A stretch of 64,000 nt of DNA. It comes from Marsupella aquatica. Its lineage: Eukaryota > Plantae > Marchantiophyta. The position numbers and the translations under genes are program-made. The stretch is from the NCBI GenBank assembly GCA_973895155.1, contig OZ316891.1, positions 10,975,875 through 11,039,874 of the forward strand. The letters are read 5' to 3'. Positions 10,324 to 64,000 of this stretch are shown piece after piece; within the stretch, counting starts at the first letter, position 1; each line of letters opens with the position of its first letter. Under the pieces are notes generated by a model, which worked only from the letters and a program-made list of their open reading frames with translations, was not told the DNA's origin and did not search any database.

Positions 10324-10436
10324 CATGTCTGGGCAGGGGTTCTAGCCTGAACCCTGCTCCAAGAAAGCTCAGAAAACCTGACCTACAGGGCAGGGTTCAG
10401 GCTAGAACCCTTGCCCAGACATGCATTATCCTACAC
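10324..10436. repeat. Near-perfect 34-bp inverted repeat followed by cattatcctacac; same repeat family as 4412-5939
   Basis: 10324-10357 vs 10390-10423 match 33/34 as reverse complements. Confidence 0.85.
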
Positions 10437-22057: not shown

Positions 22058-22304
22058 CTGGGGTCACTTCCATGGAAGTGACATATTATGTGCGATGAAA
22101 TATAGGACCATTTAAATGGTTTTGGCGGAAAACTTATTAAGTCTTCTATGGAAATATAGGGTTGTTTAATTACAAAATGCATACGTGTCATCACATGATT
22201 GGTGTCGTATAACTTTCTAGAAAGTGACTTAGGGGGGTCATAAATGACGCAAACCATCGCACGTGATGTATGACCCTTCATATAGTGACCCCCCCCCCCC
22301 CGAG
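22058..22304. mobile_element. MITE derived from the same family as the large DNA transposon starting at 45248
   Basis: Imperfect TIRs ctggggtcact...agtgac(c)ngag; first ~110 bp align with 45248-45365; flanked by direct repeat aaaatatc (22050-22057, 22305-22312). Confidence 0.85.
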
Positions 22305-37727: not shown

Positions 37728-40700
37728 TGTTGTAGCTCATCAACAACTAACTCCTTTATTCATTCCTCTTCCAATACATATAGTCCCTTAGGCAGGTAGG
37801 GTAGTTAGGCGGTTAGTCTTAACCAACTGTGGTAGGTCTAACCTTAGTTAGGCTAGAGTTAACTCGGGTTACAACACTCCCCCTTGGGTGTAACATGGTC
37901 TTGGGAAGGAATGTTGCACCCACATTTAGTTTACTCTAGGTGGTGGGAATGTAACCTCATTAAAACCCCCCCTCCTTTCTTGTGGGGGGAAAGAGTGTTA
38001 CCATTCCTTCTTAAAAATGTAATTCGTAAGTGTAATTGTGTTGTGTTAGTGGTAAATTACTTGTAAAGTCTAGTGTAGGTAATAGGAATGAAGTGTAAAC
38101 GCCCTAATGTATTTGCGGATTGTGTGGTCGATTGTTTCGTTTGTGAGTAGGGAGCTCTTCGGTTCGAGTGGGGGAAGATTCGCTTTCGATTGCTTCACGT
38201 TGTAAGTGGATTCGGAGATGGAGGTCGGGCGAATCTCCCCCTGAAGGTTGCCAGTTGAGCTTCTCACTGTCGATGGTCGAATCGATGTTGGTTCTTGTTT
38301 CTCCCAGGTTCGTTGTTGCGGCTCCTCCATGTTCTAAGTGCTTCACCGAGTGATTCTTTGTGACCTGGCGTACCTGTGATGTCGTGTCTGCATTCCGATC
38401 ATTGTGTCTCGAGTTTATTGATTCGATCCGGTCTGCAGTTGAGATAGGCTTCGCATCCCTATCGAGTGTGTATGCCGGTTGTGTAGATTCGGTGGGAGTG
38501 CTTTCGTAAACATGTCTGCAGAGTTGGATTCGCTAGAGATCCACTGAACTGCGATGCTTTTGTTCTGCTGCTCGTGAGTAAAGAAAAACTTAGGTGCAAT
38601 GTGTTTCGTTCTGTCTCCCTTGATGAACCCTGCTTGGATTTGATCGACACACGGTCTATTGTCTTCATAGAGTTGTGTGGGTGTGGTCAATCTCGGTATG
38701 CCTGTGTTTTCGTGTATGTGGTTGATCACATTGCGTAGCCATATGCATTCCCGGCTCGCCTCGTATAATGCGATTATTTCGGAGTGGTTTGACGAGGTTG
38801 TGGTCAATGTTTGCTTGTTGCTCCTCCATGAGATGGCCGTATTGCCCATCAGGAACACATACCCTGTCTGTGATTTCGCATCTGCGGGGTCCGACAGGTA
38901 TCCTGCATCCGCGTACCCGGTAAGTAAGTAAGTATCATGCTTGGGGTAGAATAAGCCGAGGTCTGTCGTGCCTCTTAAGTATCTGAAGATTCTTTTAATG
39001 CCGTTCCAGTGTCTTATGGTTGGCGTTGCGCTATGGCGTGCCAGTAGGTTCACTGAGAATGCCAGATCGGGTCTTGTCTGGTTAGCGAGGAACATCAGGA
39101 CCCCTATTGCAGATAGGTATGGTTTGTCTGAGCCAAGTAGTGGCTCGTTCTCGTTCCTCTTCCGGAAAATGTCCTTGTCCATATCCAATGAGCGAATGTC
39201 CATTGGGGATTTGACTGGTTTGGACTGATGCATATTGAATTGCTTCAGTATTTTTCTTGTATAAGTAGATTGGTGCAGTAGGATTCCATTTGGCAGATGT
39301 TCGAATTGTAGGCCGAGGCAGAAAGTAGTCTGTCCCAAGTCTCGCACTTCAAATGCCTTTTTCAGTAATTGGATAGTTTCCAGCATGATTCGGCTGGTCC
39401 CGAATAAGTTCAGGTCATCCACATATATTGCAATGATTATAACTTCACGTCCTTCCTGCTTGAGGAATATGCAAGGTGTGATATCTGAATTTTTAAATCC
39501 CATGGTTAACATTTCAGATTTAAATCTCTTATACCAAGTTAGGCCGCTCTGTTTCAGGCCATACATGGAGCGAAGGACTTGCACTGCAAAACGAGTTTGC
39601 TTGGTGAGCATTTGCTTTGAAGAAGCTTTTAGTGCAATTGATTTGGCTATTGTATGTAGTACTGCCTCATTGGTGTGATCGAATTTGCTTTTCTCAGTGT
39701 GATCTAGTCTCATGGGTGTCTGCTCCCCCTGGCAGTGGTGTTCCACACGTTGTATCAACTCGGGTGGTGCTTCCATGTGTATAACTGTGTCCAGGTGCCC
39801 ATATAAGTATGCCGTCACTATGTCCAGTTGGTGCATGGATAAGTTGTGGTACTGTGAAAAGGTGATTAGGTAGCGGTAAGTGATGGCGTCCATCACTGGG
39901 GAGTACGTGAGGTCGTAGTCACGGCCCGGGATTTGGGTAAAGCCCTTTGCTACTAGTCGGGCCTTATGTCTGACTACTTCCCCCTGTGCATTCCGTTTCT
40001 TCACAAAGGTCCATCTGCAGCCTGTGAGGTGAATGCCTGGTGCTGCTGGAGTGATGGGGCCGAAGACATGGCGAGATATAAGGGAGTCTAGTTCTAGGTT
40101 AATTGCTTTTTCCCACTCGGGCCAGTCTGAGTGGGTTTGTGCTTCCCGGATTGTCTTTGGATCATGTGAGTCTTCGTCTATTTGTTGGGATATATGGAAC
40201 GCGAATTTATCATCTATTGTTGTGTGTGTTCTGTCCCATATGTGCCCTGTGCTTCCATAATTGATAGCGATCTCGTCGTTATCTTCTGGTGTGGTGGTCT
40301 GAGGGGTTGGCAGTTCTGAATGTGGTGATGGAGCTCTTGGAGGTGCTGCTTTCCTTTGTCTGGGTTGTTTGTCTGTAGCTCCTAGGGGGCGGCCCCGCTT
40401 TGCTCGTGGTGAGGTTACAGTTGCCGGTTGGATGTCCATCTGTATGCGCGAAGGTGTGTTTGCTGCCGGTATGTGTGATCGGGTTATTTTTGCGGCATCT
40501 GCAAAAGAGTCTGGTAGGTGTTCTATCAGGTTTGTGAGGTGGAGTATTCTTTTAACTTCCGTGTCAGATTGGCTAGTTCGGGGATCCTGCCAAAATGCAG
40601 ATTGGATTTGCCAGGTGAGAGATTTGTCGCTATCTGTTTCCTGTCTTGTTTGTAGTTTTGGAAATGTAGTTTCATAGAAGTGGCAGTCGCTGAATCGGGC

Positions 40701-44812: not shown

Positions 44813-45247
44813 TGTAGAGGTTAACTCAGTCTTGGGTTGAACTATGGTTAGTATGTTAACTAGGGTTAGAGTAAACCCTAGTTGAAGAGTTGGTCTTTAT
44901 CTCTTCAACTTCTATGTGGTGTGAGAACACACAAGATAGTTCTCAAGAGAGAACCAGGGGATATAGCAAGAGATGAAAGCTTGAAGAGATGAGAGCTATG
45001 GTGATGCTTGAGTAGACACATAACCGTTAATAAAGCTTGGTCTTCCCGTGGACGTAGCCAACCTTGAGGCGAACCACGTAACTATTGAGCACGTGTATGT
45101 TTGGAGTGTTTTTCCTGATCTGATTTCTCCCCACAATTGGTATCAGAGCCAGGTTTTTTCAGTCGATTAGGAACTCCATAGAACTTGCTTCAAGCAAAGC
45201 GAACAGCGGATGATTTCCTCTTCGAAGCGGAACTATTGAAAGAAGAT
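44813..45247 (+). mobile_element. 5' LTR (44813-45135), PBS and leader of a second, probably copia-type, LTR retrotransposon, interrupted by the DNA transposon at 45248
   Basis: TGTAGAG...CCCCACA ends; tRNA-iMet PBS tggtatcagagcc at 45138-45150; internal cccgtggacgtag...cgaaccacgtaa motif typical of plant copia LTRs. Confidence 0.85.
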
Positions 45248-45619
45248 CTCGGGGGGGTCACTTCCGTGGAAGTGCCACATCACGTGCGACGAAGTATAGG
45301 GCCATTTAATTGGGTTCGGCGGAAGACTTCCGAAGTTTCATGGAAGAACAATAGGGTCCATTTTAATTTTTGGGCCGCTTTAAAGAACAATAGGTATTTA
45401 TTAAATGGGACATGTTCCACGGAAGATGTCCATGAAAGTTAGGGTTGCTTGCAATAGTTCTACATGGGACACACGGCCGGGCACACGGCATGTTGTGATT
45501 GGTCCAAGTGTCATAATATAATTGGTACACGTGTAGGGTACTATAGTCAAAATTGAGTTTGGGGTTTTGGGGTTTGGGGTTTTGGGGTCACTAGTAGAAA
45601 CTGGGGGGTATTTAGACCC

Positions 45620-45950
45620 CATTAAACGACTATGTAGTACCGTATAGGACTCGGAAACGACTGGGAAGGACTCCAGTCCTTTATAGGACTGTGAGTCATA
45701 TGTTTTGTTACTATAATCAACTGAGTCCTTTATAGAACTGGTTCACGAGTCGTTTAATAGACTGGATTTTCAGTCTATTGTAGTCTTTGTTTGGGTAGCT
45801 TTGGTGAGTCATTTTCAGTCTTTTAAGGGGTGTGATGGCGAGTTGTTGGGAAGGACTAAACAGGTTATGGAGGGTAGTCTTTAAGTTTACTTTGTGGGTC
45901 TATAAAATGACTAAAGGAGATATTTAGTGGGGTATGTATAAGTCTTTTAT
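45620..45950. repeat. Subterminal array of GACT/AGTC motifs
   Basis: More than 15 copies by eye in ~330 bp, both orientations. Confidence 0.7.
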
Positions 45951-46338
45951 GTCAACTTGAAATGAGTGATGAAGACCCCACTATACTACTTGGAATGTGC
46001 ACAAATAAGACATTCCATTCATGTTTTTTTGTGTACTGTAAATGAACTCACTCTATAAGGTCACAAAGCATGAAACTACCATACACACTAATATTGAAAT
46101 GATACAAAACAGATTCTAGTATCATCCAATGGTCACCTTACAGCCATAGTTTGACATCAATCACTTGTTTCATACATACACACAGAATTCATAAATATAT
46201 ACATGTCACACATAATGATAACGAATCCTTCATCCTCTTTACCAAATGGAAAAATTGGTACAGATATTTCTTGGATCTTTCCAAGGCAATGTCAAAATGT
46301 AACACAATTCACATGGTTCTATCTACACTTGCATTCAG

Positions 46339-49300
46339 TCACTGCAGACTAACACACTCTGATGGCCAGAGCACAAGAGATCCTACTGCATCTGCAATTA
46401 TTTCCTGAGGTGGATCATCATCTCTATTCGGAAATGGCAAATTACAATCAGATACAATCACTATAGTCAACAACACTACTATATGGTCATCGGGGACCAC
46501 TTTGCCATGGAATTTAGCATGATCCGGTCACAAAATGCCTGTACCCACACATACCTGTGAGTCATCCTCCCATGATTGAAGATTATGGACTGGCTCTGCT
46601 ATGGCTATCACCTCCACCTTACCCTAGCTGTTTTTCTTGGCTTTCCTGGGTGGCTTATACATGACATTATTCATACCTTGGTTGCGAGTCATGACTTTGG
46701 CACGAGTGTTTTGTGCTGGTGATCGAGAATTGGCTACACTCTTCTTCAAAGAATCTGCATCCATATTTGACACTTTCGATTGTGTAGCAGGATTTCCTTG
46801 CGACATCATCTCAGTATATGCCAACATTGTACTTGCTTCAATTGAAGCATCTACAATCTTACTTGCATCCAATGTTGCTCCCAAATTTTGACGTCGCTTC
46901 ACCCTGCTCCCACTTGGTTGAGAGTCTGACAACTCTGCATCAACTACAATTCAGTGTCATTGTCCAACTTAAGTGAATCACTCATCACATGTGCTACATG
47001 TACATGTCACCAACCACAAAGTTGTCACTATCTCCTTACCATTATGAACAGCCTTCTTCCCCTTCTTTGCCATTGCCATATCCTCCATGTCTGCTTCTGC
47101 TGATAAATAAACACACCACAATATTCAGGTTGAATCTATTAACCATTGAATTGTCTCTCAACATTCATATAGAGGAATTTAAAGCATCAGCTTACCTGAT
47201 ACCTCCTTGGCTATGGTCACTGAGGCACTGGGCACATCCTTTTCATTATTGCTCTTTGAGTCACCTGAAGCAAGTTAATCATGATGTCACTTCAGATCCC
47301 AGTTGATCCAACCAGTTCTTATAGAAAAGATTACCTCCAATCGGCTTAAGCTTCACAAAACTCCATGCACTTTTCAAATGTAATCTACTGGATCATAGCA
47401 GGTTACCTGTCTCAGCAACCTTCTTGCCCTTCTGCTTACTGATTACAGGGCCCTTCGATGCCTCCACTCTTCCTGCATTCAAACCATTCACTCAATTCAT
47501 GAAAACCCACTTCTAATATTTGAACATAGGACACAATGAACAATGGGCCGGTGTCATTTCCATACCTGTGTCAGATTTGCCAATTCCCTTTTTTGTTAAC
47601 AAGGGCACACTTTGTACAAGGTTGCCCTCATTGTTTGGCTGGGAACCACCCAATTTCTCAATCACAAGCTTGAAATTAGATTCCACTGATGCAAGTAGGT
47701 TTGCTATAGATGCCTCCAAAATATCCAAACGATCACCCAATTTACTTTCCACTCGAGGAAGTCCACACTCTAATGACTTCAACCGTTCACACATCTCTGC
47801 AAGAGTTGTAACAGTTCCCTGTAATCACACAGCTTACATATCTCAGATAACTGTCCCCAAGAACTGGTTGCTTACTTCCTACTACATTTCCTTCTGATGC
47901 TATCGAACATCACAGAATTACAACATAATCACCTGTTTGGAAGTCACACTTGTGACCTCACTCCTTTGTTTCATGAACTCCTCTCTCACTTCTTGTGCTG
48001 ATGGTTCTTCACCTGTCAATTTCTTCTGTATGCCACATCAACATACATATGAATTAAAGCAACTGTTGATTGTCAATGAAAATGCAATAATAGTAGCAAG
48101 ATGATTAGTGATAGGCTACGCTTACTATCAGACATGCCTTACCAGTTGTTCTTTCACTGGAGCATAACTTCCTCTCCCAGCTTGTGAAAGGTGTTTCACT
48201 TTGCCTCGAGCATTTGACATCAGTTCACTCTTGCTCTGCCCAGCCTCTGACATGAACCCTTTGATTAACCGTGTCCATTGATCCAGTTCCAATGATTGGG
48301 GTGCTGGCATTCTCCTGTTAGAACCATTGTCTATCCACATCCTTTTCAACCTATGTCTCTCTTGTTTCAAAATCCTCATTGCATAATCTGATATGCATTC
48401 TTCAACTGGGCCCTTACCATCATTACCAACATACTCCCACCGTTCAAGAATGTCCTTGCAAATAGCAGCCCAATCGGCTTTGTTCTGACTCCTAAACTCT
48501 GTAATGCTCAAATCTAACCAGCTCAATACTTCTCCTCTCAAGTCAGAATGCCAGCGGTTCTTACCATCACCTGTGGGAGTTATCCAACCATCGGAATTCA
48601 CTTCTACTTTACCAAATTTGTTACTGTCTCCTGCCTTGGTACTCCCTGAAGCGCTACTAGGTGTCCCTCCACGGCCTGGTGTCCCCCCACGGCTTGGGCC
48701 CCCACGGCCTGCACCACGGCCTGGAGCGCATTGTGCAAACCTCCCTGGAGTCCCTGCACATTTACGGGAACCATTTTTTAAGTATGAAGCATAAATTTTG
48801 CTGCCAAATATACACTGAACTTCAGAGGAATTTTGCAATGACCAAGTTACCTCTCCCTGGGCGCATAGATGGTTCTGGACCATCTGTCCAATTGCCTTGT
48901 CTTGATGAATTAGGGCCGTTTCTCCTGCCTGTGAATGATTGCCTCCTATCTGAACGTGGATGGCCTTTGTTGTTTTCGTGATTGTCCCAATGAGAGTCTG
49001 CATTCACCAACAGGCACATGCCACACTCATGGACCGGTTAGATACACTCTTTGCCCTAGACATCAGATAATTCCATATTGAGCTACAATTTCTACTACCA
49101 TCACAAAATCACTAGCACAAAGCACTTACTTGTCCAATTATCCTCCTGATCTTTCCATTGCCCTCTGTACCCATCTCTACCACGCTCTGGGCATTCATAT
49201 TCACCCCATCCATCTTCTGCTCCATCGTAGTCATCATCATAATCATCAGGCGTCCCTTGCCAATAACTCTGGCTCCTTCTAGGGTATGGATTACGTGATT

Positions 49301-49900
49301 TCTCTCTGGCTGCCCACCTACCTGGCACTTGATCAGGGCCCTGTGCATCTTGCACAGGTGCATTTTTCTGTGAGCCCCCTACATCTGGATGTCCATCCAT
49401 ATCCAATCTTTCCTCTTCACCCCACTCTCCAAGCCCCATGTCTGTCTCCATGTCTTCACCCTCTTCCCCCATAGTTTCTGCACAGCATCCACAACCAAAC
49501 CCAGGCTAAATGAGCACACTAAATTCAAAGTATCAATCAATTTCATGCATATGGACATGACCAAAACATCATTTTGGGAAGCAATTCCCGTTCTGTGACT
49601 CTGTGCATGTAGTCATCCTTAACCTCATCAAAGTGAATCTTCAGCCGCTGCCTATTGCACATCATCAACCTCATCATATTGCATCTCCCCAGGTTCATAT
49701 GTCTCTCTCAATGTTAAAGGGATGTAGTCAGTCCCTACCCGAGTAACAACATTGGAATTAAGGGCTCAGAGAATTAAAACTGCGTCTTAAAGGTACTAGA
49801 CAGACAGTAACAGTGAGGAAGGAAGCTGAGGTTTCGCAGGCATTCACTGTCTATTACATGAAGCGGGCCAAGGACATTGTCTACAGGTTTAGCGCATGCA
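46339..49900 (-). pseudogene. CACTA TnpA-like gene copy 1 (Ptta/En/Spm-like helical domain plus C-terminal Tnp1/DUF8039-like domain), multi-exon, with premature stops; 5' boundary approximate
   Basis: 48128-48570 KNRWHSDLRGEVLSWLD...LKQERHRLKRMW...QWTRLIKGF...SELMSNARGKV; 46339-46620 FHGKVVPDDHIVVLLTIVIVSDCNLPFPNRDDDPPQEIIADAVGSLVLWP; in-frame stops at 46528-46530 and 46624-46626. Confidence 0.75.
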
Positions 49901-50419
49901 ATAGGGGTTTTAGGAGCTAAGGAGGCAATGGAGTTCAAGAGCAACATTGTGGGTGCATTGGAGGCCGTGAGGGGAATGAAAGAATGTTGACGAGTTACAA
50001 GATCGATGGAGCTTATAGATGGCTAAATAATGACCACCAGGAGGCCACATAACCTTATAACCACATGCAAGTGACAATATAGCAAGGCAGGGAAGAACAG
50101 GCAAAAACATGATAGAAAAAACAATTAAGCATGCAATTGAAAATGCAAGCACGTAGGACATTCATAAGAGAATTTCAAGTGCAATTCCGGATTGCCGAGC
50201 TGCAAGCTCCAAAATACCTACAAGATTGCAGGCGTCAGGTTTTCCACTCCTGCTCTTCCACGACCAGCTTCCAATTGCTCAAGTGCTGTCCAATCGCAAT
50301 CTAGAGGAATACCTTTGGCAGGCCTTTCGAGAGACTTCACACTTCAAGCCTTTCGAGTATTTACAACGCACCATGGCAACCAGATTGACAACACATGAAA
50401 AACAGCCAAGACAAGGAGA

Positions 50420-51047
50420 GAAGTACTTGCAAGATATCACAACTACCAATAGAGCGTAGTGACAGGCAGACAACAACTTTGAATACTGGCATTTATTTTT
50501 AATGGGACCTGTTGGCAACTCAAGTTCATACGATAATTTTGGGACAACTTCACTCGGATCCCTATCGTACTGCATACCTTAGAGGTCTACAACAATCAAA
50601 GTTGTGATCTTTTTTTTATAATTTTTTGGGTTTTTTTGTGACTCTTGTTGTCTGTCTCGAGCAGGCACAACCAAGGGTTGGAGTGACGTACGGGAAGGTC
50701 TCCTGCAGTTTCACGAGACACCCTCCACTTAGCGGTTTACTTCTCGTCTCCCCAATCCCATCATAACCGAAGCTTGAATTACAAACAGTGAATAGTTCCC
50801 TCAGAAGACGCAAATCTTGGTTATTGTCAACTCCATTATCATCCTCTGGAGAAAACCGAGATTTCATCAGCATGGCCCTGAGGGTCTTCTTAGATGCATG
50901 AGAGTATGAGCGATCATAAGACCATGTCTGTTCGTAGGTCCAGAACTGGAACAATACGAGGCAGATTACACCGAAGATTACCCAAACAAGAAAACTCCAC
51001 CCTCTGGCGCTTGAGCGCCCTCCTCCAGCTACCTTTTGCACGGCCAT
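50420..51047 (-). pseudogene. Probable captured host gene fragment, type II membrane protein N-terminus
   Basis: MAVQKVAGGGRSSARGWSFLVWVIFGVICLVLFQFWTYEQ: short basic tail, one TM helix, then stem; frame disrupted in A-runs near 50610-50640. Confidence 0.45.
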
Positions 51048-52390
51048 GCTTTACTTCAAAAGTAAGAACCGAAGGAAGGAGCTTGTCTTTGACAACGCTC
51101 AACTTTTCGTGAGACCTGTCAATGTCTCGCAGTGCCACAGCTCTCTTCCGACTTCATTGACATCAAGAAGAGAGGAAACCTTGAAGAGGCTTGATCCTTG
51201 ATCAGGAATCGACCGAATTATTTCCAGCTGACGTAAATGCAGACACGTCGAACAAAAAAGTGTCTTCAACAGCTCCAGCAGCCCTATCAAGCAAAATCCA
51301 AGCAAAGATCCCCGATTCAAGACGTCATAAATCAGGCCATCTGCTCGCCCCTACATCAGAAACCAGGAGAGTGTCACTTCCAAATAACCATCCTCAGTAA
51401 TGATCAATCGAGAGACCTCCAATTTGTCAATTCATCTGCAGGGCTGGACCTCAGAATTTTAGACCGCGGGTTTCAAGTGACGAATTGATAAGGTTTCTGC
51501 CTTAAATAAAAAGGTCGCCCAATCAACCCGGAAACAAGCATGCCGGGTAGCTCTCTCTTGTCCCTCGCGGTGAATATTAATAATCCAGACGTGAAGCAGA
51601 AAACATATTTTGAGCAACTCTTCATCCATAGCCCCTCATCACCTCACTTCCCTCGTGCCTGCCCTCCTTTCAGTTGCCACAGACTCTCAGCGGAACCATA
51701 GGCGGGGAATTCGATCCTCATCATCAACTTCCCTCCCAGCAAGTCCTCTACCTGCTCAAGGAAAACGATAAAACGCTCCCATCCTCACAAAGGAAAGAAA
51801 AGCACCATTTGCAAAGGACAGAGAGTCAGGATGGTGATCGGCGGGCAGATCGTGTCTAATGCGCACAGAATTACACACAGTCGAGGAGCTGCCACAAGTT
51901 CTCGCCCTCCTCGCTCCCATGAAAAGTCTTCCATTGTCAACACTTCGCCGTAGTACAGGATGAGCTGCTACTGCTCCATTCGATTACCGTGAGCAAGAAA
52001 GGGAAACAAAATCGGAATGATGCCAAAAACCTTTAGTGCATCGCAGCAGGACGGGATGCCCGCACGAGAGAGATCATTTCATCTTTCGCTCGACATCGTG
52101 CTGGTCCCGTGGCAGTCGTCCTTCGAAGATGACCATTACTGTGCGCGCCGCCGTCCTTCCATGGAAATTGGAATTTGGAAGTTGGAGATCGTGGCATGAG
52201 GATTGACGAGATTTCGGTAGTGATGGCCATGCGAGGATTTGCACAAGCGAATGCTCTCATTGAAGTGACACCAAAAGACCCAACTCGATGAAACGCAACG
52301 AAGACTCTTTCTTTCTTTCTTTCTGCTGCTGTGAATTTCTTCCGACGCTCGATTCTTCATGAATCAGTTCCCTATCGAATCATGGGCACT

Positions 52391-52890
52391 ATGCCGAGCA
52401 CTACGCAAGAGACTGGGATAGACACTGCAAACATGGGGACTTTTGTTTGGCAAGAAATCTGGACATCAAACCTTCAGCAGCGGCAACGGGAAGCATTACA
52501 TCAGACGAGTGGACATCAAATGAGCAGTCCGGTTATAGGCAAACGGCGACTGACATAGCGGAGGGAAAAAATATGCATTGACATAGCAGACATGCGCGCA
52601 TTGACATAGCGGAGGGGAGCAAAACTACATAAGCCAACTGACCTTTTTAAGGCCCACAATTTCAAGGGGAGGGACAAAGAGAGCAAGCACTCCAATCTCT
52701 TCAATCCCTTCCGCAAGTAGCCGCCGAAATCTACTTCTTGGGGTCCAGCCCACGGATGGAGATCATGCAAGGTGGTCAATCACAGTAAGTGCAATCAAAT
52801 GCCGAGCATTGCGCAAGAGACTGGGATAGAGACTGCAAACATGGGGACTCACAGGCAAGAAATCTGGACATCAAACCTTCAGCAGCGGTC
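52391..52890. repeat. ~92-bp dispersed duplication (52391-52482 and 52799-52888)
   Basis: atgccgagca...gagactgggataga...tgcaaacatggggact...ggcaagaaatctggacatcaaaccttcagcagcgg twice. Confidence 0.85.
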
Positions 52891-54517
52891 GATGGGCTTT
52901 GATTCACAGGTCGCCCGGCTCGGTCCCTTGTTGCAGCTCGCCCAGCTCCACAACACCATAGACAAGGAGTTCGCAGGTCGAGTTTCCACCACGCAGCGTT
53001 AGCAAAATGACAATGCTTGATCTTCGCCCTCCGCCCTTTGCCCGAACCCCAAAATATCACAAGCGCAGCTCCAACGTCCAACCGGCAACCCTCCCCCAAG
53101 CTTTGTTAGACAAAAATCAGCACAGCACAGCTGAGCTCGACGGAAATAAGCTTAGCACCCACCGCAGCTGAACAAAGCTCACACAAGAGCTCATACGGGA
53201 GCTCGCTGTGGGAGTAAAAGAAAAATAGGAGGGTCGATGGCAGCCCGCAACTCCCACTGTACCCTGCTCCTTCACAACTTTGGCGAGCTCCTTTGCAACT
53301 CCAATGCAAACTACTATCCACAATTGTAAATGCACATCAATCAGCCAAACCTAAACCCTCCCACTGAGCTCAGACTCCCGCACAGCACTCCCGCAGTAGC
53401 ACTCTTGCAACAGCAGCGCAACCCTTTGCACTCCCGCAGCACTCCCGCAGCACATTGCACAGCCTCCCGCAACACTTTGCACAGCGCTCCCGCAGCTCCT
53501 GGAGACCTGATTGAAGCCTTGATTGCACACTCTTGAGGCAAAACAGCAGCGCAACCTTGCTAAACCCCTCGACCCTCTCGCCCTAAACGCTGAGTGGCAG
53601 ACACTAACCGCAACATTCAACGTTGAGCCTCGATACTTTGTGAGAAAAGTAAAACACGACTGAAAGGCGCGAGGGTGAAAAGGGTGCAAAGAGCCGTTTG
53701 GCGCCAACCTTACCATAACATGGCAGCCCCTAGAGTGATCTCAGCCATCCGGATGAAAAGAGATTGCCTTGAGTGATCTCGACCATCAATATGCAGGTTT
53801 CATGTTAACCCCAGGCCCCCATTCCCTCTACGTCAAGTGTCTAAATTAATTACACTCCAAGCCTTGTCTAGCCCCTAAAAACTAGTGCTAAGTCATGACT
53901 ACTAGGCCCTCTCAAAGTATTGCCCAGCTGAGTAAACTTCCAATATGCAACTTTTTGATGGTGGGGATCGATGGACTCCATCCAATGGTCCCTAAACCCC
54001 CCATCCCCTTAACCCTAAACCCCCCACCCTTGACATCTCAACCCTCCACCCTTGACATGTAAACCCCCCCTAAACCCCCTTTAGTGAAAACTCAGCCACC
54101 CCCACGCCTTGACATATAAACCCCCTAAACGTCTGGACAACTCGACTATGGCCAGACTGTTTTTGCAATGCCAGGGGCCATTTTAGAGCGCCGCTTGCAA
54201 GTTCATGAAGCATGTTGCCTCTAGCTCTCCAAATCCTCCCAAGGCAGCAAACAAGTTAGGGTCCACGGTCCCTGTTCGTTTACCCTAAATTGCTGCGTCA
54301 CTATTTCAATTGAGTGTTCTCTGACCCAAAACCCCATTCAAGTTGCTGACTTCTAATCTGCATTCCTCATATTGCAGGATGGATCAAAGGAGCCCACAGG
54401 GAAGTGATGCCCCTAGTGGAGGCTACTGGCTGTGATCGCTGGTGGACTGTTGCTCCTTCTGGTACATCACATGCCTGTCCCTAATTTTTGAAGGTAATTT
54501 TGCAGATCTTGTTCAGC

Positions 54518-55213
54518 ATGGCACACATCGCTCGTCAGTTGCTGGATCCAAGATTTGGGCATAGGGAGCACCTTCGTATGGATCCCCCTTGCTGTTTTGA
54601 ATGTGACGAGGGAGGAACTGTTTTGTTCTGTGATGGCCCTTGTGGTCGCCATTTTCATTATGTAGTTGATGGCCACAACCCTGATGAAGAAGATGGCCAT
54701 GGACCTACATGTCAGCGCATTGTCATTTCCAGAGGTCACGATTGGGCTGCAGCTTGGCTCTATGATCTCTGTCAGCAAAACAGAGGAAGATGTTTTGGTT
54801 GTGGGCTCCTTGGCAGAACCTTGAGAGCCAGCACAGACGAGCCCCTTGTGGTCCAGTGTTCTCATGATGATTGCTACTCATTTTACCATGTGGGTTGCCT
54901 CCGGACACTTCTGCGATTGGGGGAAATGCCATTCACCCGCCATCCAGATAACCCTGATGCACATCCCGATGCTTTTATATGCCCACGACATTACTGTGAG
55001 GTCTGTAAGGAGTATCGGGAGGGCATTTGGGACTTTGTCCAATGTCGTAGATGCCCTCGTGCATGGTGTCGTGATGAAGGACCAACAGCAGACAGGCACT
55101 TGAGGAGAGGGGTGAGGGGCCGAGACACCTGGGACATTGGACAGTGGCGCATGATTTACTGTAATCGCCATGTCATTCCAGAGGGTTCTGATATCCCTAG
55201 TACCCATGACTAG
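54518..55213 (+). CDS. Stand-alone EDM2-like composite PHD finger module (transposon cargo), possibly degenerate
   Basis: CFECDEGGTVLFCDGPCGRHFH...RCFGCGLLG...VVQCSHDDCYSFYHVGC...FICPRHYCEVC...VQCRRCPRAW...W...MIYCNRHVI is collinear with the recalled EDM2 PHD region (CAICDNGG..CCEG.CLRSFH...CFICK.LG...FYHP.C...CPLHKC.VC...CRRCPKSYH...LIYC.EHEI); WLYDLC appears to have lost a Cys via TGT>TAT. Confidence 0.85.
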   Translation: MAHIARQLLDPRFGHREHLRMDPPCCFECDEGGTVLFCDGPCGRHFHYVVDGHNPDEEDGHGPTCQRIVISRGHDWAAAWLYDLCQQNRGRCFGCGLLGRTLRASTDEPLVVQCSHDDCYSFYHVGCLRTLLRLGEMPFTRHPDNPDAHPDAFICPRHYCEVCKEYREGIWDFVQCRRCPRAWCRDEGPTADRHLRRGVRGRDTWDIGQWRMIYCNRHVIPEGSDIPSTHD

Positions 55214-55295
55214 ACACATCATGATTGCTACAAATTCCACCATCTTACAAACTTCAACCTTTTTTGTAGTGGACCCATAAGACAACCTAAATTAT

Positions 55296-55397
55296 ATGAA
55301 CTTAAGTATTTGGTTGAATGCTATGGACTTAAGTATTTGGTTGAATGCTATGGACTTAAGTATTTCGATGAATGAAAGGGACCTAAGTATTTGGTTG
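55296..55397. repeat. ~27-bp minisatellite, about 4 units
   Basis: ggacttaagtatttggttgaatgctat variants. Confidence 0.85.
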
Positions 55398-56210
55398 TCA
55401 AACAAAATGGAATTTTGATGAATTGAAATGGACTACAATAGATTGAGTGTTCAGATGACATTGTGAATGGTTGACTTGAGTCCTGATCTTTTTCCATGTC
55501 TGTCCATTGTTGTATGACAGGTTCATCTACCTAATCCCTCTCCCTCACAACCTGTATAACTGTCCATCATGGCACACCTAGGCATGAGCTCTGTCAGATT
55601 GGTAGAAAAGGTCAAAAGCAAGCTAGAGGGGTACTAAAAGGATCTCCACTTTCTCCACCAAAAGGACTTGGGTCCTTGAACTAATTCTCAGAATATTCTC
55701 CAGTGACCAAAATGTGACATGGAAGGGCCCAGATCTGTTTCGTGCCCATCCAAAGGTTAGATTTGAATTTGAGTCCAAATATGCATTGAATGTACCCCTC
55801 TAAAGCGAAGTGGTGGCCCCAAAAGCCAGTTGTTAGTGATTAAGGATCTTTGTTTGATTATAGACGCCGGTTTTAGGACGGTTCAAAATTCAAAATATCA
55901 ATTAAGACATCCCAAACTTTATGCTAAATCCAAAACAAGGACTGTTGCAACCACTGTTGCCCGACGACTCCTTTGGAGCTTCGTGACTTATTTTGAATGT
56001 TGCGTCGGACTCTGTATCCAAAGCTCGAGGCACAACACGCAATGCTTTCAATATTCCCATTCTTAAAGAAACGCTTGAAAGAATGCACACGGTCAGGTTT
56101 GATGTTGCATTATTTTCAGATCCCTCCTTTCACTTGAGAGTCTTCCTTATTCATGAACAATTCCATTTCGGAAGTCGGAGATATTTAGAGTAGAGGTGAG
56201 TGCGTAGAGG

Positions 56211-59200
56211 GTGGGCACATACAGAGCTTATTTGCAAATTCATCAACGAGAGATGGTGATTCTTAGTAACGTAGAAGATGCACTTGAAAGGATAAAGAGA
56301 GAGGCTCGTAACCAAAGAAGGCGTCAAAAATACTACGATCAGTCTGAGAGGAAGAAAAAAGATGCAACCACTCAATGCAATTGGGAGAACGAGGTTCTTG
56401 CGGATGCAGAGCAGCATTGTAATGACATTCTTGCAGATGCGGAGCAACAAGGTTTGGATATGCTTGCGGATGCGGAGTTACAATGTGAAAACATGCTCAC
56501 TGAGGTAGAGCAAGAAGGGCAGCAATTGCTTCGTGGTGTGAATCAACAATGCAAGGCGCTAAAGATGGCTGCTATGGATGACATACGAGAAATCACTGCC
56601 CAAGCACAGAGTGAGGTTGCTCCGTTGTTACACACCATGCTTTCAAACTTGCAAGAGGAAGTTGCTAAAGGCAAGGAAAGAGTCTGTGTTTTGAATGCAA
56701 CCATAGGCAGAAGGGAAGCACGTCTCCAAGCATTGAATGCGCAACTCGCAGTGTCTATTGATGAGCCAGAGTTTCAAGTTCATGATTTGGACAAGGCTGT
56801 AGCATTTCGGAGAAGAGACGCAGCAAGGAAACGAGCTCAATACCAAGAGGAGCACCAATCTTGCACCCGCATGAAGAGAACGGGGGTATGTAGTGACCAC
56901 GGTGATCCTATCCCAAACCGGAAGCGACAGTGCATCAATAGATTAGTTTCCAATTTCATTAGGGTTTTAATGAGTCGAAGGAAAGACCTTAATGTGGCTG
57001 CTAGAAAGCTAGTTATGGAGAGATTTTGGTTGCATAGTGCTTTGAGACAATACCAGCCTGCAGCGCTTGGGTGTGCAAGGCTAGATGCATCTGTAGGGTC
57101 TACCATGATTGACCTTGTTAAATCTCTAAAAATTGTGAAATCAGCTAGACGCAAAGATCATCTAGCCATGAAGAGAGCGCTCTTGATATCGCTGGTAGGA
57201 GAGTCCATAGTAGGGAGTAGATACCAGACCTCATTGGCCACAACTTTGGGTGTCAAACGTCAAAACATCCACAAAGCAGGTGCAATGAGGAAACAGCTTG
57301 ATCAGGATGCAGCATTGAGATATCCTACCGGTGACCGAAAGGTTAGGAGTGACAAGATTTCTATTGAGGTGCGAAAGATTGTGGAACAATACTGGGAGAG
57401 CAATACTCAAATTTCTCCTTGCAAGAAGGATGTGGCCAAACTATGCCTAGGTTTGAAGCAGTACGAGAAGCATTCCAAGCATTGGCTTGAGGATACTGAG
57501 GTAAATAATTATTTTTTGCTAATAGTATGATCGTGTTGAACTCGTATTCTCTGAAGTGCATGACAGAGTTTCTATGAGTAAGCTGAACCTTACCCCCTGG
57601 CGAATGGATCCTGATTTCATATTGCGTGTCTTGCAGGTTGAGCTCTTCATGAAATTCGAAAATTGGTGCACCGTGGAGGGGAATGGCATTTCTATAGGTC
57701 TCAGATCTTTTCAACAATTAAAGCCATACTATATCCGCACTATGAAGGATAGAATGGTTTGTTGCTGCAAACAACATGTTGAAATGGACCTGTTGAAAGA
57801 GGCACTCAACAAGTTCAGGAGACACCAGCACCAAAAGGATTGTAATTGTGAGTGTTCCATATGTAGATCACCCAATGCTTCTTTAGAGGGTCGCAGTTGT
57901 ATTGCCTCTAAGACATCCATTACTTCAGTACGAGAATGGATGGAAGGAGCAGTTTGTCCTAAGCTTGAGGGTTAGGAATGGCACCGGAAGAGTTGTATTT
58001 TTGGTCAGTGTGAGAGATGTGGAGTTCACAAGTTGTCATGGTGTGAAATGGAGATGGACATCATAGAGACACCTTATATTGATTGGGAAACCTTTCAATA
58101 CGTGGAGCTAGATGAGAAGACACAGAACAAGAGAGAAAAGAAAAAAGGGACTGCTGAAAGCGCACAACAGAAGGTAAAGCGCTTGCGGATGGTGCATCGA
58201 AGAACTTCTCTTCCTGATTTCAAGCTGCACGTACTAGGTACAATGAAGACATTTCTTATTCATAATTTTCGAGCCCGTTGGCAAGCTGTTCAGTCCAAAC
58301 TCTGCTTTACCTTCCCGCGGGGAACTATAGTGTCGTCCATAGACTTTTCTGAGAATTATACGTTCAAGGTCCAGAATGAGATCCAAACTCAGCATTGGGA
58401 TAATAAACAAATTACCTTGTTGATTCTTGTGACATACAGACATCGTGAAGATGTTGAGTCTATTGAGGCTGCCGTAGGTAGGTCTGTAGGAATGGCACAA
58501 GACAGCATTGGGAATCGAGACATTATAGCTGATTACCATTTTTCATTAGTGATGACAACACCCATGACACCCTTTTTGTGCAACACTGCATGGACTCACA
58601 CGTAAACTGGATGAAGCAAGAGAAAATTTCATTCAAGCACCATTGGGTTTGGTCAGATGGAGCGGCTTCACAGTTTAAGGCTTGCAGGCCTTTTTATTAT
58701 GTCTCCAGATATTACAAGCGACATGGTGCTAGAATGAAATGGTTCTTCCATGCTTCAGGACATGGAAAGGGGGTTGCTGTGAGTTTCTTAACTCGTCTTT
58801 GATCAGTTACTGCTCTATTTGACCATCATGAACAATCTGATTCAATACTATAGTGAGCTTTCATTGTAAATAGTGAGCTTTACAAATTGCACAGGTGTAC
58901 ATTCATTCACCCTTTGATTGAATTGTAATTGGTGTGCTTCATTTCAGGATGCTCTTGGTGGTCACATTAAGAGCGGAATAGAGAAGGAGCAGCTGAAAGG
59001 AATTCATGGAGCTCGGTTGGAGAATGCTGCTGATGTGGTTGCTTTTTGCAAAGACAAATTTGCCCTTGGCCAAGAGAAGGAATATGGTGACGTTCAATTG
59101 GTGAGGCAAATGTTTTGGGAAATTGGTGCACATGAAGTGAACCGAAGGAAAAAATGGGACTGTGACGCAATCAAGGGAAGTAGAACACTACATTGCTTTG

Positions 59201-59811
59201 ATGGGTTTAGTGATCGTCTCTCTACTCTTTTGCAAGTAAGGGATCTTTGTTGCTTCTGTGCTCATTGTGTAGATGATGAACCAGCCAAATGTGAGAACAT
59301 AGAATGGGTAGGACATTTTAAACTCGAGATGGTGAGAGGAGTACTGCCAATTGATGTGATACCTGACATACACAACATAGGACTAGGGGAAGGAGGTTCT
59401 CAATGGCAGGATGGCTTTTTGGCAGAATTGGTCCAACTAGGTGACTTTTATGCTGTTGAAGCCGAGCAGCCAAATAAGTGGGGTGCTGATTTCTACGTCC
59501 TTCAATGTGAGGAGGTACTGCACACAATCAAAGAGAGATTTACAGACGGGTATGAGGTGGAGTTCGATGCAGGCGACTTGGCATTGAAGGGAAGGTGGTT
59601 TCAACCAATTCCAAAATCAGAAACCAGATTTGTATTCAATGACACTGCACCCTCAAGCTATACTCATGCAAAATCTGTAGTTCATATTAGGTTTGCTTTG
59701 ACTCCATGTGAGGTTGGTCGAAAGGGTGGCAGTAGGATGTACATCTTAGATGTACATTCTCTAGAAGCAATCTCTGCTTCCTTGACTTCACAAGTCACTG
59801 TTGGAACGTAG
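56211..59811 (+). pseudogene. Sola2-type DDD transposase; exons ~56211-57500, 57637-58778, 58948-59811; one nonsense codon (57973-57975) and one frameshift (~58540)
   Basis: IDFSENYTFKVQNEIQTQHW, ISDDNTHD, VWSDGAASQFK and, after splicing, FFHASGHGKGVA|DALGGHIK are the motif blocks around the Sola2 catalytic aspartates; upstream Cys/His clusters CCCKQH and CIFGQCERCG. Confidence 0.85.
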
Positions 59812-59874
59812 ATTGTGCATTTAGGCGCTACAATGGAGTGAAGTGCCTGCACTAGAAGAATCCGAGGTGAACTG

Positions 59875-60205
59875 AGACCGCAATATATGACTCATTTTGG
59901 CTCATGTGACTTCATTGTGACTCAACGTGACTTGACCCACGCTGTGACCCTTGGAGTTGCAAAAGTTGAGACCAAAAAATGGAAGTCACTATTGATACTG
60001 GGCTTTGCAACTTGCTTGATACCCATTTGTGACTGATCTGTGACTTTATTGTGGAGTCTAGCCTTGTTTCGACGTGACTGCAATATGACTTCAGCGAGTC
60101 ACATCGTAAGTCACATACATGACTTACCCGCATTCAACAACGACTAGCGTGTGACTATTTAGTGTCACAAGAGAGACCAATGGAGACCCTGGCCCGCGTC
60201 ACACA
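59875..60205. repeat. Internal array of (G/A)TGACT / AGTCAC motifs between the convergent transposase and TnpA-like copy 2
   Basis: About 16 copies by eye in ~330 bp, both orientations. Confidence 0.8.
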
Positions 60206-60704
60206 ACAGAACCATTTGGGACTCTATATACTCATGTTTATAACTAATAAGGTTCACATGCAAGTTATAACCATGACTAATGAACACAGAGGGACAGTTC
60301 ATAAGGAGAGAGAGCACTCGACATTACAATACATAGAAACCTGATGTTCTAACTTTAGAAATATAACACATTGAATACAAGAAATGAACATAGCATGAAT
60401 GACATCCACATGAAACAAAGCATCATATAAGCAGATCCTACATAAAACATTCATAAGAATTAAACACAATCACAATCTTGCTAAAAAATGAAGATCATTT
60501 GAATTCCAATGGAATAGTTTACAATGTGATCAATGTAATTTAGACAAAACAGGAACTCATAATTGATGACTGTAGGATGAGATAACTGAAAGCACATGCA
60601 TGATACTATGAATCTCCAAGAGGACATGATTCTTGTACTGCTTCTTGACATCTAAAATCTACATAACATGACTCACACTACAAACAAATAATGGCATGAC
60701 ATTG

Positions 60705-63700
60705 TTATGGATCCTCTATGAACTTGCTTGGCCATAATACCAAAGAACCTGCAGCATCTCCAAGTGTCTTTTGAGGAGGATCATCATTTGTGTTTGGAAT
60801 GGGAAGGATAGCTTTAGGTTTCACTAGTAATGTGACTAACACTACTGAATAACCTGGGGGAATCCTCTTGCCATGGAACGTTGTGGAACCAACCTGCACT
60901 CTGGCAAATCCTACTCGTGTTCCACTCTCATCAACAGCTAACAAGCCACTTTGTCCCTCAGCATTAGGTGCTTTCCCCACTTCCACCTTAGATCTTTCTG
61001 CCAGCACTGTTCTTGGAGGTTTGTATGAAACCTTTGACGTGGCTCTGCTCCCACCAGCAGACTTGCTTCGTGTGCGCATGCTTCCTCTCTTCACAGTAGT
61101 GAAGCTAGGCTCAGTAGGTTCCTCTATTAGGACTGTCACAGTAGCAGGTTCATCACCTGGGAGTGTCATACCAACTAACTCTTTGGTTGGATTTATCTCA
61201 ACAAGAGGCACACCTGTCATTGAGAATGATACATTCTGCAAATCATTTATCTCTGCAATGGAGTCAAGATCTACATAGCATGAATCTGGCTCAATGGTAT
61301 CATTGTCATGCTTGCTGATATCCTCATTTGCCCCAACATTGATATCATCCACTCCCTTGCCAATGTCATCCTCATCCAAACATGGTTGACTGCCCTCTGT
61401 CAAACAAGTTGCTTGTACAGACTGCAACTTTGTTGCCTCTAAATTACAGCGAGTATTTGCCAGGTTCTCATACTTCTTCTCTGTAGCACCTGTCTTATTC
61501 TCTATGGACACAACAACCACAATATATGTTACTGAAAATAACACATTCAACAAACAATGTCAATTCAAACTATACATTTAATAATCATATCCCACACAGT
61601 TGTAAAGGCCTTACCTTCAAGCCTACATGTCGTTGGCATGCCAGAAGAGTGCATCGACTTTGCCACCTCAAGTGGTGATGGTGGAACTCCTGCAGAATTG
61701 GAATCAATTTTATCTCTCACCGACACAACAGCTTCCATTAAGGTCTTGAAGTTCACATGGAACAAGTCAGTCAATGAATTCAAACGTTCATTGATCTCTG
61801 GAAGACATGTTTCGACAGCCTTCAAACGACCACTTATCTCTGTAAGTGAAGATCCACCTCCCTACATGACACAGGGGTATAGGTTCAATCACTCCATATG
61901 AAATGTTGGGCAATATATGCACAATCAATGTTATATACAGTGTACACCTGAAATTCAACGCAGGTCATTCAATTACCAATCAGAACTCATATAACTTACA
62001 TGCTTGGAGGATTCAGATGCACCCTCTTGAGCCCGGGTGTTCACAATTTCAGCCCTCAACTCTTCTTTTGAAGGGCTTTGCCCCAATTGGGCTTTCTGCA
62101 CATGCATGGCAAACACAAGTTATCGATCAATATTCAGGGAACGTACACTAAAAAACAAAGTTTACATGTATGGGTTTACACTAAAAAATAGTACATAGTG
62201 TAGCATAAATTACATAGCTAGGCCATTCATTCTTACCAAACGTTTAGCTGTCGGTGCAGTGCCGGTCCTTCCTGTCAGATTAGGGTTCTGAACACTCAAC
62301 CTGGCCTCGGTCATCTGTGAACTCTTCTTTTTTGAAGCATCTGTTACAAAATAAGCTACTAACCTTGCCCACACTTTATCATCACAACTGGCTGGTGGAG
62401 GCATATCTGGCTTCTCCCCACCTTCCTTCCAAGCCTTATGCATTCTCCACCTCTCTTGCTTGATAATTTTACCTGCTGTACTCTCTAGGCAACCTATGTC
62501 CACGCCATCATCACTGCCCACATAATTCCATTTGGCAGCAATATTTTCACATACAGTCTTCCAATCTTTTGGATGCTGTTTTTTAAAATTAATAGCACTC
62601 ACATCTAACCAACGCAATACTTCAGCTTTCAAATCAGCATGCCATCGGTTCTTGCGAGGACACTCAGCATCCACCCATTGTCTCTCATTCAACTTTATGT
62701 TCCCTTTCTTTGTCACCTCCCCTCGTGCACTGCTCTCGGTAGTACTGGGCGTTGTATTGGCCACCCCTTCATTCACCCTACCTGGGGTTCTGAAGCCACC
62801 TGGGAAAATACAATGCCATTCATGCTTGAGAACTACATATAGCAGAATGGATGACGGCAACATTCAATGCTTCACTTCAAGAAAAATTCTTCAAACATAC
62901 ATACCTGTAGCTCTGCCTGTAGATGCCTGTGCAGGGACTGCACTCTGAAATTGTTGCGACCCTGGACCACCTGTCCAGCCTAGTACATGGGCCGGATGAT
63001 GTCACTTTCTAGGTATGTGTGTGCAAACATATGTACTGAAAACTAAGTACAAACTGTAGGAAAACAACTGAACATTCACCGACATACCTGTCCCCCTTCC
63101 GTGCTGCATCTGCATAGGGGCATTAGTGAATACTTGAGTCGATGGTTCGACTGTCCAACCTGCACACATACATTTTCTATCATTATACATGTGCAGAGTC
63201 CCCCCCCCCCACGTGAATGGACTCCACATATAATGAGTTCTTCCATTGCTGACAAGATCAGACATTACCTGCTCCTCTTCCAGCGTTTGTAGGTACTGAA
63301 TTTTGATATCCCTGCCAATTACCTTCACCACCTTCCCAACCTTGTTCATTCCACGACCCACCACCATCCTCCCAACCTGGTTCAACCCATGTCTGTCCTT
63401 GTGGACATTGGAACTGATCATTACTAGCATTTGCCCAATCAGGTTGGGCAGAATCTGCATGCAATGGCAGGTGGACAGAATTTCATGTTGTCTGAATCCA
63501 ATACATCCCAAACAATGTCAAAAATTGATATGCAGTCTGAAATTCAGGAGTGCCATGCCTTCACAAAGAACTGGCATATAGATATATACTCACATCCCCA
63601 TGGTTGAGGTGGACGTCCATACCCACGAGATTGTGGGTTTGGACCTGCTCTGCCTCTACCACGGGCATAACCTAGAGCTTGCCCCCTGCCATAGTATTGG

Positions 63701-64000
63701 GCACCAGCCTGGGATCTACCACTACTACCACCTCGCCAACCTTGATCAGAGGTCAGCCCCCCTGCTGGTATGGTGCATGCACAGGCTTCGAAGGCAAAAC
63801 AGAACTGGCAGGACGCTGCATCACATCACCAACTACAATGTCAAGAACTAAGCAAGGTACATATGTGTAGTACTGAACATATGAAACCTCTAAACAAGAG
63901 TTTTTAACTCAAAACCTTGTTGGGAAAACTACTTACATGTTTCTTTTGGGGCTGCTCTGCAATGTATTCATCTTCATAACCCCCATCCTCATCCATTTCC
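60705..64000 (-). pseudogene. CACTA TnpA-like gene copy 2, multi-exon, 5' end beyond window; probable frameshift near 63760
   Basis: 62238-62800 KNRWHADLKAEVLRWLD...IKQERWRMHKAW...VWARLVAYF...SSQMTEARLSV; C-terminus FHGKRIPPGYSVVLVTLLVKPKAILPIPNTNDDPPQKTLGDAAGSLVLWP; clearly paralogous to copy 1. Confidence 0.78.

Follow-up and report, generated by a model that had tools for sequence, protein, structure and literature searches.

A stand-alone EDM2-type PHD module in liverwort transposon DNA, a possible chromatin-reading accessory gene

We have analysed a 64,000-nucleotide stretch of the genome of the liverwort Marsupella aquatica (contig OZ316891.1; the whole stretch is referred to here as the window) and find that an open reading frame (ORF) at 54518..55213 on the plus strand encodes three adjacent PHD-type fingers in the order in which they occur in NSD proteins. 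The ORF lies among transposon genes and belongs to a family of stand-alone genes in which the retention of zinc ligands shows, as far as protein sequences can, purifying selection. The donor of the module was likely a liverwort EDM2 paralogue without the methyltransferase-like domain. It is possible, at what we judge to be somewhat less than an even chance, that the gene supplies its transposon with a chromatin reader that acts as a decoy or anti-silencing factor.

The PHD module and its stand-alone family

The coding frame runs from an ATG at 54518 to a TAG ending at 55213, 231 codons with zero internal stops, and in the alignment its start and stop positions are common to the homologs P0001 and P0002. 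An earlier note on this DNA had described an intronless ORF of ~231 amino acids, and we confirm this for the coding frame, to which the word intronless applies; the 5' untranslated region may be spliced. An extra upstream exon joined to the PHD frame was ruled out, the candidate introns being 44-55 bp long and out of frame. That the ORF consists almost solely of an EDM2-like PHD cluster also holds: Pfam sees NSD-type PHD families and nothing else. Along the protein they are, in order, PHD-1st_NSD, PHD_NSD and PHDvar_NSD; the second passes the cut-off (E 4.6e-9), and the first (E 0.0037) and third (E 0.012) stay below it. The ORF as a single sequence gave only chance matches to solved structures, with no PHD structure among them; a profile of 76 relatives found the NSD2/NSD3 PHD clusters at E 9e-21, and an alignment with 130 relatives shows the same three adjacent fingers. 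An AlphaFold model of the protein (predicted local distance difference test, pLDDT, 82; predicted template modelling score, pTM, 0.79) has NSD PHD domains as its best structural matches in Foldseek, the top one being NSD2 PHDvC5HCH (E 8.9e-4; Z 6.0, root-mean-square deviation 2.5 across 78 residues), and the neighbours of the protein in the ESM Atlas are streptophyte PHD_NSD clusters (0.92).

The first finger, PHD1 (C4HC3, residues 26-85, 54593..54772), has Tyr at ligand position 82; PHD2 (C4HC2H, residues 92-158, 54791..54991), which is the finger Pfam recognizes as PHD_NSD, has 8/8 ligands; and PHD3 (residues 160-218, 54995..55171) is a variant. Thus the window copy does not hold the complete set of 24 ligands of an EDM2/NSD-type module, 21 of the 24 agreeing with the consensus of 128 outside relatives. 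One of the three exceptions, Tyr82, is confined to the window copy; the other two, Cys184 in place of His and Glu187 in place of Cys, are found in P0001 and P0002 as well, and the zinc site of the third finger is by this comparison remodelled across the stand-alone family. Seven added His or Cys residues (15, 18, 25, 45, 116, 149 and 194) do not vary among the three full-length members, whereas no more than 4% of other sequences have them, and one of the seven, His194, may substitute for the lost third-finger ligand. PHD1 retains acidic residues 22, 30, 31 and 39 together with Trp80 at positions that we take to bind the N-terminus of H3 in other PHD fingers. Outside the module there is little else: the protein stops 13 residues past its last ligand, at the same place in P0001 and P0002, Pfam reports no C-terminal methyltransferase-like domain in the ORF, and a profile of the N-terminal, RFD-like domain of EDM2 has no match in six frames of the window or in P0001 and P0002.

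Among 172 candidates of comparable length, three proved to be close relatives, namely P0001 (68%), P0002 (55%) and P0003 (partial). A profile run against 1.84 billion representatives yielded 218 matches at E <=0.001, 150 of them listed. The matches listed include further short, diverged PHD-only proteins (P0052, P0142, P0144, P0148 and P0158), which share one branch with the window protein in a 43-row tree (95/86), the last four as a second, more distant stand-alone group. PHD queries found zero loci in viral contigs and metagenome contigs. P0001 and P0002 both match the window copy at every one of its 22 Cys/His ligand positions, with identities of 64% and 50% at non-ligand positions. When the ORF was mutated at random to matching identity, a mean of 13.6 and 10.6 ligands were kept, and all 22 were kept in 0/2,000 runs each. 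Neutral runs thus keep far fewer ligands than the homologs do, which shows purifying selection on the family; the measure is made at the level of the protein and is distinct from the ratio of non-synonymous to synonymous substitution (dN/dS). Random loss of Cys/His across copies, which had been named as a sign of neutrality, is therefore not what we see, and a passive Pack-type fragment in neutral decay can be set aside for the family, whose ligands are kept beyond neutral expectation.

The earlier suggestion of selection as opposed to passive capture accordingly stands for the family; the window copy is itself damaged. Codon 82 (54761..54763) is TAT, encoding Tyr, where 4/4 close homologs aligned have Cys, and the transposase gene downstream is broken at two points, by an early stop (TAG, 57973-57975) and by a shift of frame near 58540, so that the window copy is decaying. 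If the original residues were the Cys and Gln of the homologs, both point lesions would be of C-to-T type in CHG context, which would fit a methylated element. The observed/expected ratio of CpG is 0.44 in the PHD ORF versus 0.43 in a host F-box gene, and this measure is uninformative here.

Origin within the EDM2 family

The comparison with EDM2 and NSD PHD clusters that had been suggested earlier places the module in the EDM2 family. Those long relatives that have a name are EDM2-like, come from Riccia, Marchantia, Sphagnum, rice and other seed plants, and show 25-32% identity. Outside the stand-alone family, the highest scores among the matches listed in the profile search go to liverwort proteins, 280-770 amino acids long, that end directly after the PHD module: MPTK1_1g03210 and MPTK1_4g03050 of Marchantia polymorpha, R1sor_003797 of Riccia, Mapa_015239 of M. 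paleacea, and CAM6087769 and CAM6107985 of Calypogeia. In five of these six, an N-terminal part of 400-520 amino acids contains the N-terminal domain of EDM2 (E 1e-20 to 1e-26). Since they share this domain and end after the PHD module, we regard the liverwort proteins as EDM2 paralogues without the C-terminal domain. We note that this paralogue family, which comprises P0017-P0021, P0024, P0165 and P0166 in Marchantia, Riccia and Calypogeia, is absent from the results of our literature search.

In two maximum-likelihood trees, both unrooted, the stand-alone family stands beside the methyltransferase-less paralogues and apart from all EDM2 proper at 100/99; the first has 43 rows (LG+G4), and the second has 29 rows under a mixture model, 14 near-duplicate or long-branch rows having been dropped. 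An initial fast tree with 131 rows gave the same placement. At four diagnostic residues the family agrees with the paralogues and at one with EDM2 proper, and the acidic tract of EDM2 is absent both from the paralogues and from the stand-alone family (in the latter, 3 versus a median of 9 Asp or Glu in 20 residues). Under an approximately unbiased (AU) test, a tree that joins the family to liverwort EDM2 is still accepted (p=0.076); the branches are long and the trees have no outgroup. Of the EDM2 origin proposed earlier, then, the family is upheld, and EDM2 proper is disfavoured by the trees but not rejected by the AU test, and it is likely that the donor was a liverwort paralogue without the methyltransferase-like domain. 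As a side observation, the P0122 cluster of wheat and Aegilops comprises PHD-only EDM2-like proteins of 252-339 amino acids that nest within seed-plant EDM2; by its position in the tree this is an independently arisen reader-only form.

The divergence of the family lends itself to an explanation in which the gene is a selected accessory gene that has moved past histone reading, its product having become a remodelled zinc scaffold for a host protein, such as an EDM2 partner, or for nucleic acid. The very long stem branch, the altered third finger, the loss of the acidic tract and the gain of invariant His and Cys residues would all be in keeping with such a change. Against it, PHD1 keeps residues that we presume to contact H3 and the ligands of PHD1 and PHD2 are complete in the homologs, and we consider this explanation quite unlikely.

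Transposon setting of the gene

The neighbouring gene at 56253..59811 (plus strand; exons 56253-57500, 57637-58778 and 58948-59811) encodes a DDD-type transposase with acidic motifs at 58342, 58656 and 58948. Its ATG lies 1,040 bp past the PHD stop on the same strand, in agreement with the earlier statement that the ORF sits ~1 kb upstream of a same-strand transposase. The positions of its two introns (136 and 169 bp) were deduced from GT-AG sites together with an alignment with P0161-P0164, its four database relatives, which are all from Calypogeia fissa and reach 81% identity in segments. The motifs DFSENY, SDGAASQFK and GHGKG..D of the window transposase are, we assume, those of Sola2. Searches of Pfam, PDB and the ESM Atlas gave no informative or named family match, the nearest Atlas clusters being unnamed mollusc and arthropod proteins (0.90-0.91); Transposase_21 (TnpD-type) has no match in the plus-strand transposase segments or the Calypogeia homologs; and a single-sequence fold of a Calypogeia transposase (pLDDT 36.7) was unusable. 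A conserved, beta-rich C-terminal domain (59371-59808) has no Pfam or PDB match in searches with six sequences, which leaves a BAH-like identity, once considered, unsupported.

Six related transposase loci were found in metagenomes (L001-L006, 34-39% identity). One of them has a NIF/FCP1-type phosphatase gene facing the transposase (L001:2767-3972, minus strand, Pfam E 8e-15); accessory genes are thus found in this transposase family. A Cys/His-rich ORF without a Pfam match lies on the minus strand at L005:5298-5621, and the introns of the L002-L004 transposase genes are full of repeats. These introns bear on the earlier proposal that the PHD protein recruits or mimics the ASI1-AIPP1-EDM2 complex and so promotes full-length element transcripts through methylated introns. 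EDM2 acts in this way via H3K9me2 (PMC9910501, PMC7529245), and the repeat-filled introns of L002-L004 and the spliced TnpA-like genes of the window would offer substrates; for the adjacent transposase the proposal is less apt, as its two introns are short and poorly suited to heterochromatic read-through. The protein moreover has neither the N-terminal nor the C-terminal domain of EDM2 and the family groups away from EDM2 proper, and we regard the read-through proposal as improbable.

Between the PHD stop and the transposase lies a spacer (55214..56252) with a 27-bp tandem repeat at 55295-55397. Upstream of the PHD gene is a repeated region (52391..54517) with a 22-bp array at 53992-54069 and a 93-bp direct repeat (52391-52483 and 52799-52888, 405-408 bp apart); coverage climbs near 52390. 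A contig of run X6 steps back 405 bp at this direct repeat, which means that other copies have the 52391-52888 unit in tandem.

The stretch is present in 8 sequencing runs of three organisms and air samples, and we compared contigs of runs X1, X2, X4, X5 and X6, with contig depth serving as a rough guide only and not as copy number. Run X4 has 1,215 contigs on 52001-56500, of which 405, 430, 280 and 100 are at 99+, 95-99, 90-95 and <90% identity, respectively. In X1, near-identical contigs have depths of 129 (49688-50617), 133 (52450-52670), 136 (55610-56026), 129 (56239-57489), 120 (57817-58401) and 143 (58946-59610), compared with ~2,000 for CACTA gene A; the depth over 50642-52358 is 39-50. 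At 49694 a 3-bp insertion absent from the window is present in all but 128.8 of an X1 depth of 1,971, and 128.8 is also the transposase figure. The data suggest joint amplification of the transposase, the PHD region and a sub-type of the CACTA-type arm A described below. Contigs at 55610-56500 match the transposase in depth, and overlapping contigs of like depth join the PHD 3' flank to the transposase (136 and 128.5 in X1; 976, 935 and 1,027 in X4), the X4 spacer-transposase contigs (935-1,027) being ~8x as deep as a contig at 44058-44367 (118). Loose contig ends in X4, X5 and X6 extend in frame as diverged variants, as judged from letters translated by eye: one in X5 has its ATG at the same position, others there resemble P0002 and P0140, and one in X6 resembles P0148/P0158. 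Several PHD sub-families therefore exist, and the repeated nature of the gene claimed earlier is evident from diverged in-frame variants inside single runs, some of which could come from co-sampled species.

CACTA-type DNA with TnpA-like genes lies on both sides, and this, together with the transposase downstream, substantiates the transposon context that the earlier note had assigned to the gene. Arm A (45589..50617, minus strand) has a CACTAG terminus at 45589 and a spliced TnpA-like gene at ~46400-49500; element B (59850..64000, minus strand) begins with a CACTAG 39 bp past the transposase stop, contains a TnpA-like gene and runs beyond the window. Subterminal repeats are present in both, and the two TnpA-like genes, both on the minus strand and with weak Transposase_24 matches, are 37-44% alike. 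The arm A sub-type whose contigs are as deep as those of the transposase may belong with it to one mobile unit. Element B, on account of its far higher coverage, is read as a separate insertion, and we do not count it with the transposase unit, the minus-strand genes of L001-L006 showing no similarity to the TnpA-like genes of the window. CACTA elements are bounded by CACTA...TAGTG termini and a 3-bp duplication; the CACTA termini at 45589 and 59850 are single ends with no partner within the window, and the ORFs scanned include no TnpD-type transposase. The right end of the carrier may lie beyond element B, past the window edge, and the carrier itself may be a Sola2-like transposase unit, the flanking CACTA-type arm or a composite of both.

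The neighbourhood of the transposase also accommodates an integration-targeting role, in which the PHD protein would bind the transposase or a TnpA-like protein and tether the transpososome to H3-marked nucleosomes. The same-strand transposase with flank contigs of like depth, the position of the window copy in a nest of other elements and the invariant family-specific residues, which point to new surfaces, are all compatible with such an adaptor, and the transposase of Rehavkus includes a PHD (PMC6446971). Nevertheless, the PHD sequence is far commoner than the window transposase sub-type and the six related loci have no PHD gene in the DNA covered, so that we think this role unlikely. Least probable of all, in our view, is that the gene belongs to a host family or is a passive Pack-type fragment, its conservation reflecting host function and its position in a transposon being incidental. 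PHD-only host genes exist, CACTA elements carry host fragments (PMC10741241), the window copy is decaying, and no element ends were found; yet identity to the annotated host proteins aligned is only 25-32% while single runs hold many diverged in-frame variants, the coding frame is free of introns, and the flanks are repeated together with the PHD gene.

Several further observations concern the surroundings. Arm A is inserted just inside an LTR (long terminal repeat)-like segment at ~44814-45588, beside which a motif near 45140 is presumably a Met-tRNA primer-binding site; 94 bp at 45254 recur at 22060 (82%), and this repeat is internal sequence of the LTR element and not a terminal repeat. The segment at 50642-52358 has lower coverage and is richer in CpG (observed/expected 0.83), and is possibly a captured host fragment; beside it, a 144-amino-acid ORF (50616-51050, minus strand) has a membrane-anchor-like stretch and no Pfam match. 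A Copia-type LTR retrotransposon at 37727-43489, with 150-bp LTRs that are 100% identical and an uninterrupted 1,537-amino-acid ORF (38415-43028, minus strand), is a very recent insertion. Host-like genes occur at 6966-8914 and 25558-26571, one a spliced gene for what we take, from a motif, to be a short-chain dehydrogenase and the other F-box-like (weak Pfam match), and near-perfect inverted repeats lie at 5516-5700 and 10324-10423 (arms of 44 and 34 bp).

Proposed role and relation to known systems

Of these possibilities we favour, tentatively, an accessory gene with a decoy or anti-silencing role. The module would have been captured long ago from the liverwort EDM2 paralogue and then kept by selection as a stand-alone transposon gene, both steps being likely in our estimation. 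The predicted property of its product is binding to H3 tails where chromatin is silenced; as a reader without an effector, it might compete with host readers and thereby ease the silencing of the element. EDM2 of Arabidopsis is a reader of H3K9me2 and serves as the anchor of the ASI1-AIPP1-EDM2 complex (PMC9910501, PMC7529245, PMC3632883), and by analogy the PHD protein is predicted to read H3K9me2. Because both flanking domains are missing, we would not expect it to perform the whole job of EDM2; for a selected reader without an effector, the simplest roles are competition for a mark or tethering of a partner. We infer the capture from the methyltransferase-less paralogue, joint mobility with the neighbouring transposon genes and the expression of intact copies, whereas H3 binding, the mark read and the decoy or anti-silencing effect are predictions. 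On a broader view, which we find doubtful, liverwort DNA transposons captured an EDM2-family reader once, in ancient times, and it gave rise to several stand-alone sub-families used in counter-defence or targeting, the carrier being a chimera that unites CACTA-type ends, a TnpA-like gene, the PHD gene and a Sola2-like transposase in one unit.

A number of points weigh against the decoy or anti-silencing role. The window copy has lost a PHD1 ligand (Cys82Tyr). That the selection acted within an element is a presumption, P0001, P0002 and the second stand-alone group having been judged as proteins. The PHD ORF is deeper than the transposase in every run (~2-5x in X1, 10-30x in X4 and X5), which implies that most PHD copies are not beside the window transposase sub-type; no single listed contig bridges the two genes; and 0/6 related transposase loci have a PHD gene in the DNA covered, most of them with little upstream DNA. 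No terminal repeats or target duplication bounding a PHD-transposase unit were found in 49500-60500; Sola elements have terminal inverted repeats and a 4-bp target duplication (PMC10741241). PHD-only genes are annotated in hosts, namely Marchantia P0021 (280 amino acids) and the wheat-group P0122 cluster. Lastly, the stand-alone family is on a very long branch, without the acidic tract and with a remodelled third finger, so that its mark may be a different one, if it reads any; PHD modules that do not bind H3 have been described in plants (PMC9640981).

Among known systems the closest in sequence is the EDM2 family (PF12047 + PF22908/PF23004 + PF26055), including Arabidopsis EDM2, with which the window protein shares the three-finger module and 21/24 consensus ligands. 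It differs in having no N-terminal domain, no C-terminal methyltransferase-like domain and no acidic tract, in its remodelled third finger, and in that the gene has an intron-free coding frame, is repeated and lies inside transposon DNA. The methyltransferase-less liverwort paralogues fall on the same side of the 100/99 split, share the four diagnostic residues, likewise have no acidic tract and end after the module, but they have a canonical third finger and, in 5/6 cases, the long N-terminal part. The PHD cluster of animal NSD1-3 is alike by profile (E 9e-21) and by structure (Z 6.0), but is part of a large H3K36 methyltransferase that is not mobile. The DDD-type acidic motifs of the window transposase are putatively those of Sola2, but no Sola terminal repeats or 4-bp duplication were found, and the CACTAG termini and TnpA-like genes that flank the PHD gene resemble CACTA/EnSpm elements, but no TnpD-type transposase is present in the ORFs scanned. 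No PHD accessory gene is described for Sola or CACTA/EnSpm in those parts of the literature that were examined. A full-text literature search likewise brought up no paper whose title or abstract deals with a transposon-borne PHD gene of EDM2 type; it covered few subscription journals and neither Repbase reports nor liverwort genome supplements. Rehavkus, a DNA transposon, has a PHD finger too, but a single one within the transposase and, in the source table, in animals only (PMC6446971), unlike the separate EDM2-type triple module of a plant described here.

Accessory chromatin genes of transposons are already known as a kind, among them the anti-silencing genes VANC (PMC13317346) and TnpA (10.64898/2026.08.24.746577) and the TET/JBP genes of fungal elements (PMC12730594). 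VANC/KIU of VANDAL Mutator-like elements is likewise a separate transposon-borne ORF, in part captured from the host, that acts on chromatin silencing (PMC13317346), but VANC recognizes short DNA motifs whereas the window protein is a predicted histone reader without a VANC-type family match in Pfam. Should the histone-reading role prove correct, the PHD gene would represent a different route from that of the plant anti-silencing factors known from these sources (VANC, TnpA and transposases), which act on DNA motifs or element ends, in that it would act on the chromatin mark itself. A natural, effector-free and fast-evolved EDM2 reader would also provide a means to learn what the module recognizes, and it directs attention to an unstudied liverwort EDM2 paralogue that is likely involved in transposon control in early land plants.
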